From Escherichia coli (GTDB taxonomy: Bacteria > Pseudomonadota > Gammaproteobacteria > Enterobacterales > Enterobacteriaceae): a stretch of 64,000 nucleotides of DNA. How positions within the stretch are numbered: position 1 is the stretch's first letter; each line of letters opens with the position of its first letter. The position numbers and the translations under genes were made by a program. Below, piece by piece: positions 24,010 to 34,513 of the stretch. Under the pieces are notes generated by a model, which was not told the DNA's origin, ran no database searches, and was given only the letters and a program-made list of their open reading frames with translations. The stretch lies in assembly GCF_003334385.1 (NCBI RefSeq), contig NZ_QOWN01000026.1; one strand, written 5' to 3'.

Positions 24010-27000
24010 TCAGAACGACCAGTTCACACCAGCTACCGCGTTCCACGGGGATTCCACACCGGCACTATGGCTATACCCCACCCCAAGATGCCCGCTTAAC
24101 GTACTGCTGAATGAGGCTTTAATACCTGCCTGGTATATTCCACGTCTGCCCGACAAATAATTGACGAAATTACCGTCACTATTCACTTTCACCCGGTTAT
24201 CATCGACAAATTCTTTGCGCACAGCCGCCTTCAGCCACGGCTCAACTTCCATACCGTTCCCCAGACGCATGTTGTAACTCAGCGTTGCGCCCAGTTCACG
24301 ATATATACTGCGGGTATCGACTGATTTCGATTTCATGCCATTGGATAAATGATATTCGGGGTTATCAGCGGTGAACCCCGTTAACGATGCATACGGCGTC
24401 AGGTTCCAGTTACCATCGGTAAATCGCATCCCGGTTTCAATGTGACCGCCCAGCCCGTTGCTGTGGTAACTGCCATTGGCGGCTCCACCGCTGCTCATTT
24501 TACCTGCTACGTTACTTTTAAAACGGTTCAGCTTCACGACACCGTCCAGATAGAAACCACTTTCATGTTCCCAACTGGCATAGCCGCCCAGAGAATAACT
24601 GCCCACACTGCCATGTCCTCCGCGATCAAAACCGATATGTGAATGGGAATAGCCCATAAAAGCGCCTAGCGTGGTAATTCCTTCAGGAATATCATTACGG
24701 CTGTCGATCCCCACTGTCATTCCGGTCAGCGTCTGCTCAAACCCGGCACCCGCATCGGTGGTGACATTATTACGGGTGTTATACGTCGCCCCCCAGACAT
24801 TATTGTTGTGTGGACTCGCTTTCATTATGTTCAACCGCTCGCGAATACTGTTTAGCTCAGCATCAAATACCAACGGTAATGTTGCTGCCATATTGAGTAC
24901 GGCTGCCGTAGAAGGCGTAATGCGTTTCTCCGGAACGGGTGTCGGCGTTGGATCGGGAGTAGGGTCTGGTTTTGGATTTGGGTCTGGCTTTGGATCGGGT
25001 TTTGGGTCTGGCTTTGGATTTGGGATGGGGTCCGGGTTGGGTTTGACATCATTGGTCAGGTTCCAGTTGCTGTTGCCGTCACTTTTCAGGACATACTCAT
25101 AGGTCCCAAGATCAACGAAACCGCCGGTATTGCCCAGCGTAAACGAAGCATCCCCTCCCCCTGTTTTCACCAGCGTCATCGCGTCGTCAGACTGTGGGCT
25201 GACGCCGGTATCCTGAACAAAGATTTTAAAATTACCAGTGGCGTTGTTGTTGACGACCAGTTGATCGCCCCGGGAGCCTGCAACGTTGGTATGCAGGTAG
25301 AAATTACCGCTACCGGAAAGTTCATTGGTTGTCAGCGTATTGTAGATACCGTTAGTTGTGGCAGGCGCTGCTGTTTGTGCTGACAAATAAACATCACCGT
25401 CGTTGAGTAGCAAACTGTTTACTCTATATTCGCAGTTGCTGGTACCTGCACAGGAATTATTGCTGTTAAGCCAGACACTGCCCCGGCTGGCAGCCGTCAG
25501 GTCGGCAAGCGTGGTATCGACGCCATTTCCCAGAGTCAATGTCGCGCTATCGGTAATCCGGACCGCCCCTTCGAGTTTAACTGGCGTAACATTATCCCGT
25601 GGCGTCATTAACGACAGGCTTCCTGTCGCGCCACTGACCGATGCATCCGCCAGCGTACCTGCGTAGACGATTGCCGTACCGCCAGCGACCTGGAGATCTT
25701 CTGCCCGGGCCAGAGCCTGAAACTCATCTTTTGACCGCCCAAGGGTATATTGCCCGCCAGAGTTAACCTTTGTGGCGGAGTCCTGACCCAGGTTTTGCAT
25801 TGCCCCACCCTTGCCAACCGTGGAGTCGCGAGCTTCGGTACCTGCTAATACCAATAAATTACCGCCATTTTCCAGCAACATATTGGTCGCTAAATTGCCG
25901 GAAATGGAAAAAGTACCGTACTGGTGAGTACCGCTGATTTCAATACCGTTAGCCGTGCTCGTCTGGAGAGCGGCACCGCTGTTCTGGACGATATCTGTCG
26001 CTTTGCCATTATCGTTGACTGTCAGCGTACCGCCTTCATTGATCTTTGTTTTTATTGCCTCTCCGTTAGCTGAAACTGTTTGTATTCCGCCGTCGTTAAT
26101 TGTTGTCTCATTCGCCACACCCTCGACAATTTGTTCACCGCCGGTGAGCGTCGTGCCTGTCGCAGTGGCTTTTGTTTTGACGATCTCCCGTCCGCCCATA
26201 TTGACCTGTGTTTTGTCAGAAGAGGTGTCTGACTCCACGGTTAACACGCCGCCATTTGCCAGCAGGATATTGTTCGCCGCACCCTGCTCGATGCTGAACG
26301 CGACGCCATCCGCGCGTGTTCCTGTGACCCGCGTCGCCCTGGTGGTTGCAACCAAAGCGCCCTGGCTACTCTGCTGTATCCCCGTTGCGCTGCCTTTCTC
26401 CCGCACATCGAGTGTGCCGCCGTCATTAAGCACCGAGTTTTCAGCCAGACCGCCCTCATTAACTACCTGTGAACCCCCATTAATAATGGAACCTTCCGCT
26501 GTCCCGTTTGCCATAATTTGTTGTAGGCCAGAGACGATATCGGTATTGATTGCCTTACCATAATTCTGAACGGTTTGCGTGCCACCATTGATGTGTGTTT
26601 TCTCTGTTGACCCACCATCAACAATTTGTTCACCACTTTCGATATTTGCTTCAGTGGCTAAACCATATACCGTTTGCTTGCCACCTTTGATATTTGCTTT
26701 ATCAGAAGTGGCACTGGCATATATTGTTTGGGTGCCAGCACTATTGAGTACAGTGCCAACATCTTTTCCATAAACATCCATTTTGCCGTTGGCATTAATA
26801 ATCGTGTCAACTGCGCGGGAACCAGTGACGACTGTTAATGAGCCAGCATTTTCCAGCACTACATTTTTAGCTTCTGAATTCCTGATGTAGAAAGCATCAC
26901 CATAACTGTTGGTTCCTTCGATAAGTGTTCCGGAGGTCGTGGAAGCAATTAATGCGCCGCCGGATTGTTGCTCAACATGCTTAGCCTCACCACCGTCCTG

Positions 27001-32260: not shown

Positions 32261-34513
32261 ATGTTTTCTATAAAACCAGGACCCAGAAATTTACCTATCG
32301 ACAACCCCACATTGTTATCATGGAACATTACTGACGGGGATCTAAATTCCAAATTAAATACATTAGAATATCTAAACTGTATAACAAATATTATTAATTC
32401 TTGTGGAGTTTACCCTCAAGGATTAAAAGACAGAGAAATTATATCAACTTTTCACGCAGAAAAAGTTATTAATGATCTGTTAAAAAACGATTATAAAATT
32501 TCCCTTTCTCCAGATACAACTTACCGAGAGTTGAATAAAGCAGCACAGCGTAGCATTACAGCGCCAGACAGGATAGGAGAAAGAAAAACATAGGTTTATC
32601 AACGAGATACAATGATTGAAAGAGGTGATAACAGCGGTGTTTATCAGTATGGTCGTGCTGAACATTTCACCCACATTATATCTGACAAACCTTCCCCAAA
32701 AGATAAATATGTTGCATATGCTATTAACATTCCTGACTATGAGCTGGCAGCCGATGTATATAATATTAACGTGACGTCACCTTCCGGACAGCAAGAAACA
32801 TTTAAAATATTAATCAATCTAGAACATCTACGGCAAACACTTGAGCGTAAATCTCTTACTGCTGTTCAGAAATCACAATGTGAAATCATCACCCCCAAAA
32901 AACCTGGCGAAGCGATTCTTCATGCTTTTAATGCCACCTACCAGCAGATCAGAGAAAATATGTCTGAATTTGCACGTTGCCATTATGGGTATATACAAAT
33001 CCCTCCAGTGACAACTTTCCGCGCCGACGGACCAGAAACTCCCGAAGAAGAAAAGGGTTACTGGTTTCATGCTTATCAACCCGAAGATCTTTGTACCATC
33101 CATAATCCAATGGGAGATTTGCAGGATTTTATTGCATTGGTTAAAGATGCTAAAAAATTTGGTATCGATATCATTCCTGATTATACCTTTAACTTTATGG
33201 GAATTGGGGGTAGTGGTAAAAATGACCTGGATTATCCCTCTGCTGATATACGAGCGAAGATCAGTAAAGATATAGAAGGTGGTATCCCTGGCTATTAGCA
33301 AGGTCAGGTTTTGATTCCATTCATTAAAGATCCAGTAACAAAAGAACGTAAACAAATCCATCCAGAAGATATACATCTCACTGCAAAAGACTTCGAAGCA
33401 AGTAAAGATAACATCTCTAAGGATGAATGGGAAAACCTCCATGCATTAAAAGAAAAGCGTTTAAATGGAATGCCTAAAACAACACCCAAAAGTGACCAGG
33501 TTATTATGTTGCAAAATCAATACGTTCGTGAAATGCGAAAATATGGCGTACGAGGTTTACGTTATGATGCGGCAAAACACTCAAAACATGAACAAATAGA
33601 AAGATCAATAACCCCACCGCTTAAAAATTATAATGAGCGGTTACACAATACTAACTTATTTAACCCAAAATATCATAAAAAAGCCGTTATGAATTACATG
33701 GAATATCTGGTAACTTGTCAGTTGGATGAACAACAAATGTCATCACTGCTTTATGAAAGAGATGATTTAAGCGCCATTGATTTTTCATTGCTCATGAAAA
33801 CGATAAAAGCCTTTTCATTTGGTGGAGATCTTCAAACCCTTGCATCAAAACCGGGTTCCACAATCTCAAGTATCCCATCAGAAAGACGGATATTGATTAA
33901 CATTAACCACGATTTTCCTAACAATGGTAATTTTTTCAATGACTTTCTATTTAACCATCAACAAGATGAACAATTAGCAATGGCATATATAGCCGCTCTG
34001 CCGTTCAGCAGGCCTTTAGTTTACTGGGATGGCCAAGTATTAAAATCAACGACTGAAATTAAAAATTATGATGGGTCCACGCGTGTCGGCGGTGAGGCGT
34101 AGCTTAATAAAGGTTGCTCTACCTATCAGCAGCTCTACAATGAATTCCACGCATTATATATAGATAAAGCAGGAATATGGAGCGCATTTGAGGGTGTATC
34201 TGCAACTAAAAACGTTCTGGCCTTTAGTCGTGGGGATTCTGTGAACATTAATCACTCTCCTCATGATGGACTAGTTATAATAAATAAAGGAAACGAAGAA
34301 GTTGAAGGTACCTGGCCTAACAAATTGCAACCTGGAATATACAAAAACATGGGGAGTAATAGCGTTAACATTATTATTAATAATACCCGAAAAATTATCC
34401 CCCCTGGTAAAGTATTTACGCTTAGAGGCGGAACTCTAAATATCAATATTCCTGGGCGTAGCGCTCTTCTTTTAGGGAAAACAGGAGAACCGCCGAACTA
34501 TCTCTATTTATAA
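32261..34513 (+). pseudogene. ygaQ: Glycoside hydrolase family 13 (alpha-amylase-like) gene; one 751-codon frame interrupted by three in-frame TAG codons
   Basis: Four consecutive track ORFs all in frame 2, separated only by TAG at 32591, 33296 and 34100; GH13 region-II-like motif GLRYDAAKH; amylase-like C-terminal domain; good SD before ATG 32261. Confidence 0.8.

Follow-up and report, generated by a model that had tools for sequence, protein, structure and literature searches.

Known premature stop codons at the locus and related systems

The closest described counterpart of the locus analysed here is the island between ssrA and glaH in Escherichia coli K-12 MG1655, in which ygaQ is annotated as a pseudogene (b4462) and ypjC (b2650) and ypjB (b2649) are annotated as separate coding sequences. 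We analysed a stretch of 64,000 nucleotides of E. coli DNA (contig NZ_QOWN01000026.1), in the following called the window, which carries this ssrA-glaH island in a 10.5-kb stretch (positions 24,010 to 34,513) comprising ypjA, a pinH remnant, the joint frame of ypjC and ypjB (ypjCB), the tRNA gene ileY and ygaQ. Three of these genes, i.e., ypjA, ypjCB and ygaQ, together contain five premature stop codons, all of them amber (TAG) codons. K-12 MG1655 has the same TAG codons at ygaQ 111, 346 and 614 and at ypjCB 161 (4/5) and CAG at the ypjA site, whereas the window adds the rare ypjA CAG232TAG and carries neither the CP4-57 prophage nor the K-12 ygaY frameshift. Four of the five lesions are already known as K-12 pseudogene lesions; the remaining lesion is of the same kind and represents a rare allele from nature. 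With a probability of roughly 0.86, we regard the five stop codons as the marks of ordinary nonsense-mutation pseudogenes, i.e., as inherited G:C>A:T transitions of differing age that are explained by mutational bias plus chance and involve no decoding mechanism.

In-frame stop polymorphisms in bacterial genes were surveyed before, and frequent readthrough or reversion was argued for them (Belinky et al., 2021; PMC7918605). The stops of the island resemble those of the survey in being common by descent among close relatives, in the polymorphism timescale and in a ratio of non-synonymous to synonymous rates (dN/dS) that is below 1 but high. They differ in that carriers of the island stops gained further disruptive lesions and show relaxed constraint, which fits true pseudogenes. 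Moreover, ygaQ was taken as a horizontally acquired gene silenced by H-NS (PMC7229825), and the island as a whole is dispensable and horizontally acquired. A protein of 110 amino acids named YgaQ was reported as a single-stranded DNA flap nuclease and mitomycin C resistance factor and was not called a pseudogene fragment in that work (PMC4725251). This published YgaQ is the N-terminal stub of a 750-amino-acid amylase-family protein and ends at TAG111 (window 32261-32593).

Ancestral codons and direction of the mutations

Translation of the three frames from end to end yielded exactly five internal stops, and codon extraction identified each of them as TAG. This agrees with the initial annotation, which had described the five in-frame TAG codons and the continuity of the frames and had made no mention of the K-12 annotation of four of these lesions. 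It had also reported that the three genes contain no frameshifts, and here too it was right, since the genes are as long as their intact orthologues, and gap-free alignments of ypjA and ygaQ with orthologues of equal length leave no room for hidden frameshifts. As an example, the window ypjA shows no gaps and six mismatches, including the TAG/CAG site, against the intact ypjA of K-12 (b2647, 1526 amino acids), and ygaQ of the window aligns gap-free to the intact alleles of 750 amino acids. The notion that the island carries ambers and nothing else is correct for the three genes and fails for the island, in which the pinH remnant is truncated at both ends.

For the assignment of ancestral codons the locus was fetched from 23 other E. 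coli genomes, and an orthologue from E. albertii was added. The gene ypjA, encoding the AIDA-type autotransporter adhesin YpjA/EhaD, occupies 24010..28590 on the minus strand (1526 codons from the K-12 start, terminator TGA) and has one amber at codon 232 (27895-27897), which arose from CAG (Gln) by C>T; CAG is found in K-12, O157, AF206, 2013C-3492 and the remaining sampled genomes lacking TAG. Also on the minus strand, ypjCB (29502..30875; 457 codons, terminator TGA) has one amber at codon 161 (30393-30395), again derived from CAG (Gln) by C>T, with CAG in 2013C-3492 and AF206 and CAA in O157. The plus-strand gene ygaQ (32261..34513; 750 codons, terminator TAA) encodes an alpha-amylase-family protein and has three ambers, at codon 111 (32591-32593), codon 346 (33296-33298) and codon 614 (34100-34102), each of which goes back to TGG (Trp) by G>A. 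At codon 111, TGG is present in the intact alleles, and the E. albertii ygaQ orthologue (60% identity) encodes Trp at 111, 346 and 614. Intact alleles exist for all three genes, e.g., in 1504D004, KK19-02, WCHEC000837, JSWP021 and ECA64; an intact ypjCB is found in these five strains and in O157, and an intact ygaQ of 750 amino acids in the same five strains as well as in AF206, ET625 and CH4799. The three genes thereby conform to unitary pseudogenes, in that full-length orthologues from the same species have a sense codon where the stop is located.

As the ancestral codons are CAG, CAG, TGG, TGG and TGG, all five lesions are G:C>A:T transitions. This bears out the suggestion of a C-to-T bias on CAG or TGG codons, which had been one of the explanations offered initially. 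On the plus strand of the window the changed positions (27897, 30395, 32592, 33297 and 34101) are all G>A, corresponding to C>T on the minus strand. The negative plus-strand guanine-cytosine (GC) skew and the K-12 position at 2.78 Mb in the left replichore identify the minus strand as the lagging-strand template, and the mutated cytosine lies on this template at 5/5 sites.

Amber hotspots at Dcm sites, caused by deamination of 5-methylcytosine in CCAGG, are known from the classic work on lacI. These hotspots resemble the island lesions in that C>T turns CAG or, read on the opposite strand, TGG into TAG. They differ in their context: none of the five island sites has CCAGG or CCTGG (0/5 sites in CCWGG), the ancestral contexts being ACTCAGTCT, GAACAGAAC, ACATGGGTT, TATTGGCAA and GCGTGGCTT, and a Dcm deamination hotspot was rejected on this ground. 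A closer parallel is offered by the strand bias of G:C>A:T transitions, which in wild-type E. coli were found to be ~1.9-fold commoner with the C on the lagging-strand template (Foster et al., 2018, preprint; 10.1101/346874). All five island cytosines have that orientation, but a two-fold bias gives a probability of ~0.014 at the most favourable that all five stops are amber and does not amount to amber exclusivity.

Spread and age of the TAG alleles

Alleles were typed by megablast with 55-mers centred on the single nucleotide polymorphism (SNP) in 5,426 complete E. coli genomes. In this design every 28-base megablast seed spans the SNP, so that a match identifies the allele. The most widespread of the five lesions is ygaQ TAG614 with 2403/5,426 carriers, followed by ypjCB TAG161 (1435/5,426, K-12 among them), ygaQ TAG346 (1082/5,426) and ygaQ TAG111 (1041/5,426). 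By this typing, ypjA TAG232 is present in 2/5,426 genomes, i.e., SCU-104 and TUM9812. Carriers were isolated from humans, pigs, chickens, cattle, milk, lettuce, fresh water and marine sediment. The very different allele frequencies show that the five lesions are separate inherited events and do not reflect one episode. They are independent, spread over a long time and inherited as polymorphisms. The ypjA TAG232 allele appears to be very recent and ypjCB TAG161 to be old.

Within the sampled strains, ygaQ has TAG614 alone in seven cases and TAG614 together with TAG346 in one (AHM9C61I), and all three ambers occur together in K-12, SCU-104 and the window, a distribution that is nested but mosaic. 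Probably, TAG614 came first and was the hit that inactivated ygaQ; TAG346 and TAG111 seem to have accumulated later, when the gene was already dead. The ygaQ alleles are recombinant mosaics, as seen in TUM1887, which has a +1 frameshift at nucleotide 1641 without TAG614. For 2013C-3492, recurrent mutation at codon 111 was considered and rejected in favour of recombination, as TAG111 sits there among K-12-type flanking SNPs, with TGG at 346 and 614.

Relaxed constraint and further decay in carriers of the TAG alleles

Where ygaQ is intact, its alleles show 64 non-synonymous and 117 synonymous polymorphisms, i.e., a ratio of non-synonymous to synonymous polymorphism (pN/pS) of 0.146, which shows that the gene is functional in these strains. 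The derived changes in the clade carrying TAG comprise 20 non-synonymous and 12 synonymous ones (pN/pS 0.44; Fisher p = 0.006 against the intact alleles), a contrast in which recombination blurs the branches. Constraint on ygaQ is thus relaxed about three-fold in the TAG clade.

Moreover, carriers of the TAG alleles have suffered further damage in the same genes. ATCC 8739 has a +1 frameshift at nucleotide 2139 of ygaQ and -1 frameshifts at nucleotides 675 and 703 of ypjCB, and STEC1575 and UTME-8 have a +1 at ygaQ nucleotide 1641. In TUM9812, ypjA combines TAG232 with a -1 frameshift adjoining the TAG and a truncation by the insertion sequence (IS) IS1, and ypjCB combines TAG161 with a -1 and IS5. 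Several of the indels recorded in the three genes across the sampled strains lie in homopolymers; singletons among them could be assembly errors, and those common to independent assemblies are probably real. The additional frameshifts and IS insertions and the relaxed constraint in carriers indicate that the three genes are true pseudogenes and not genes maintained by readthrough. A run of nine A residues at ypjCB nucleotides 667-675 (window ~30201-30209) is a recurrent site of -1 events, found in ATCC 8739, 2013C-3492 and TUM9812, and is intact in the window.

Lesions of the three genes in other lineages

Elsewhere in the species the three genes decay by other routes. In ygaQ, an independent CAG413TAG (O157:H7 and strain 116), a -1 at nucleotide 582, insertions of IS3 and IS1 and 5' deletions were found. 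In ypjCB the lesions are TTA80TGA, a -1 at nucleotide 609 (four strains), a 137-nucleotide deletion, an IS1 insertion and loss of the whole gene, and in ypjA they are GAA558TAA, -1 frameshifts at nucleotides 725 and 2784, a 1.3-kb deletion and a truncation by IS3. Apart from the five ascertained sites, three independent nonsense events were found, a TAG, a TAA and a TGA. The species-wide decay of the three genes therefore shows the usual mixture of lesions. Five extra genomes fetched for new independent nonsense events contained just frameshifts, IS insertions and deletions, and a protein-database search for more truncated YgaQ forms returned nine clusters with no new event beyond the O157 form of 412 amino acids. 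The ygaQ loci with CAG413TAG are those of O157:H7 Rafaela_II (locus L003, 9501-11753) and strain 116 (locus L022, 8601-10853), and their 412-amino-acid product forms a protein cluster of its own (P0006).

Probability of five amber codons

The rarity of the pattern was assessed with null models that started from the ancestral codons as restored for each gene and counted all single-base changes leading to a stop. The probability that a nonsense mutation creates TAG is 0.37-0.55 for ypjA, 0.24-0.39 for ypjCB and 0.23-0.375 for ygaQ. The 29 other derived changes in the clade of ygaQ pseudogenes served to estimate a local mutation spectrum, with nine G>A, seven C>T, seven A:T>G:C and six transversions; on the plus strand, G>A outnumbers C>T here as well. 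When all derived changes of ygaQ in the TAG clade are counted, 19/32 are G:C>A:T and 12 of these are plus-strand G>A.

Several of the resulting figures speak against ordinary nonsense mutation as a sufficient account. With equal rates, five TAG codons out of five have a probability of 0.001, which rises to 0.011 if only transitions are allowed and is 0.004-0.005 under the spectrum estimated at the locus. In ygaQ, 4/4 independent nonsense events are amber, including CAG413TAG of O157, and of its nine Trp codons three changed to TAG and none to TGA, a split with an a priori chance of 1/8. Furthermore, pN/pS in the TAG clade is 0.44 and not 1, with an observed ratio of non-synonymous to synonymous changes of 1.7 compared to 2.8 expected for neutrality under the local spectrum. 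A value below 1 is in part explained by counted changes that predate the inactivation.

If the five stops are asked to be of the same type, whichever it is, the probability rises to ~0.02 under the locus-estimated spectrum. The all-amber pattern thus looks like a 1-in-50 to 1-in-200 outcome that was chosen post hoc, i.e., like a modest coincidence. That it stands out, as had been stated initially, is accordingly true in a weak sense, and the pattern is not replicated in other lineages. The missing frameshifts are unremarkable: in the clade of ygaQ pseudogenes there is ~1 indel for every 10 substitutions, and with the ~14 derived substitutions of the window lineage in this gene, ~1 indel is expected.

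Explanations for the all-amber pattern

The shared amber identity seems to result from the dominant class of E. coli mutations acting on Gln-CAG and Trp-TGG codons together with the chance inherent in small numbers. A more specific cause would be a real and persistent process favouring TAG, restricted to the locus or E. coli-wide, such as deamination of lagging-template cytosines with a preference for C before A, by which the excess would be mutational and not due to chance. Such a CpA preference would produce TAG directly from CAG and, by way of CCA>CTA on the opposite strand, from TGG. In line with this, 5/5 mutated cytosines precede A and are on the lagging-strand template, a sixth and independent amber (CAG413TAG) arose in ygaQ of O157, TGG>TGA is missing from the sampled ygaQ alleles, and effects of context and strand on G:C transitions in E. 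coli are documented (10.1101/346874). However, CAA>TAA should be equally common under a CpA preference, yet none was seen although CAA outnumbers CAG (20 vs 12 in ygaQ, 9 vs 5 in ypjCB), which weakens this explanation. By arithmetic from the codon counts, the preference alone lifts the probability of five ambers just to ~0.04. Moreover, the published triplet hotspots for G:C are NGC/GCN and not CCA or CAG (10.1101/346874), and the events outside the ascertained sites, with one stop of each type, do not favour amber. Taken together, a process of this kind is unlikely. Slightly less probable still is the broader proposition that segregating premature stops in natural E. coli are amber-enriched beyond codon content and G:C>A:T bias, either by a strand- and context-specific C>T process acting preferentially on CAG and TGG or because UAG is the least costly premature stop in vivo. 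It finds some backing in the fact that 6/8 independent nonsense events in the three genes are TAG. If it were true, a general amber excess would bear on models of the mutation spectrum and on the tolerance of premature stops, but the present data do not require it. Searches of the literature retrieved nothing specific on readthrough of the island pseudogenes or on an amber bias of nonsense mutations in nature.

Another type of explanation places the cause in translation, where near-cognate decoding or a naturally occurring suppressor tRNA would allow partial readthrough of UAG and the genes would be "pseudo-pseudogenes" expressed at a low level or conditionally. This could draw on the survey in which many bacterial in-frame stops were argued to persist at dN/dS below 1 and possibly to be read through (PMC7918605), on the pN/pS of the ygaQ TAG clade, which stays below 1, and on the otherwise clean frames in this strain. 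We consider it very improbable, as the three serial ambers in ygaQ would multiply a small readthrough to effectively zero and as frameshifts or IS elements disrupt the frames downstream in several carriers. Deletions occur in these genes of carriers as well, and constraint is relaxed three-fold against intact alleles. The bases 3' of the five TAG codons (T, A, G, C and C) have no shared context. Normal genes of the window, i.e., raiA (5048-5389), gabT, kbp, ygaM and luxS, end in TAG, which shows that UAG is not reassigned and supports the earlier remark that the genome is not recoded. Within the 64-kb window ARAGORN detected no suppressor tRNA, the genes of tRNA type being the transfer-messenger RNA (tmRNA), ileY (CAU) and argQ (ACG). 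Suppressor-dependent conditional expression of silenced genes, which the initial annotation had considered, has evidence against it in the further lesions of carriers and the relaxed constraint on ygaQ, and no suppressor tRNA is found among the tRNA genes of the window. The same annotation had also considered passage through an amber-suppressor background and had named assembly errors as a way in which its observation might fail. Many historical K-12 derivatives carry supE, and the ambers could in principle stem from laboratory passage in such a supE/glnV-type background or from errors in sequencing or assembly. The window is, however, not K-12 (no CP4-57, an intact ygaY and 10 SNPs in 10.5 kb). 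Four of the TAG codons are found in 1041 to 2403 of the 5,426 genomes from varied sources and at very different frequencies, and even the rare TAG of ypjA is present in two independent assemblies. A laboratory or artefactual origin was rejected, as the same TAG codons recur in natural isolates of many hosts and countries, with independent assemblies numbering from hundreds to thousands, and we give it next to no weight.

According to the favoured reading as ordinary nonsense-mutation pseudogenes, cytosines of the lagging-strand template would have changed spontaneously to T, through deamination or an error of replication, at CAG and TGG codons of island genes that are silenced and dispensable. 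The lesions arose at times far apart among the ancestors of this phylogroup-A-like lineage, and the alleles may then have reached their various frequencies by drift or hitch-hiking, with the later hits in ygaQ being presumably neutral. With this, each lesion has an ancestral codon and a population frequency assigned, and ypjA CAG232TAG is flagged as rare. The all-amber look of the K-12-type ypjA-ygaQ island comes down to ordinary transitions at Gln-CAG and Trp-TGG codons that were inherited over different spans, and it matters little beyond bookkeeping.

Layout of the island and neighbouring features

The island is AT-rich with a GC content of 38-42%, and K-12 MG1655 differs from the 10.5-kb region at just 10 bases. 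A perfect match to the 10.5-kb stretch was not found among complete RefSeq genomes. At the junction of ssrA and ypjA (window 23487-24010) no CP4-57 prophage is present, whereas MG1655 has a cryptic prophage of 22 kb there. The nearby ygaY, encoding a major facilitator superfamily (MFS) transporter (window 54180-55364), is an intact open reading frame of 394 amino acids, and the MG1655 version is an annotated pseudogene of 1178 nucleotides; as this length is not a multiple of three, the K-12 lesion is a frameshift and not an amber. In this region the window is therefore a close relative of K-12, yet it is not K-12.

The same lesions carry the label "internal stop" in many strains in the annotation of the Prokaryotic Genome Annotation Pipeline (PGAP). 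For ypjCB, the readthrough translation scores 945 bits against NCBIfam NF050179 (Ecoli_YpjCB; cut-off 650). The pinH recombinase remnant (28929..29168, minus strand; coordinates mapped from the K-12 pseudogene pinH, b2648) is labelled by PGAP in every sampled strain as a recombinase family protein missing the N-terminus and the C-terminus. In the middle of the island lies ileY (31626..31701, minus strand), a tRNA-Ile with the anticodon CAU according to ARAGORN and the K-12 annotation, which is not a suppressor.

The flank of ileY is a variable integration site. A P2-like prophage is found there in ET625, and in PRO_A-2567 and GN4751 a type I restriction-modification island with IS elements replaces the ypjA-ypjCB segment near ileY. 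In TUM9812 an island of the type I restriction-modification type truncates ypjA, and TUM1887 has a prophage and an anti-phage deoxycytidine triphosphate (dCTP) deaminase at the ileY flank.

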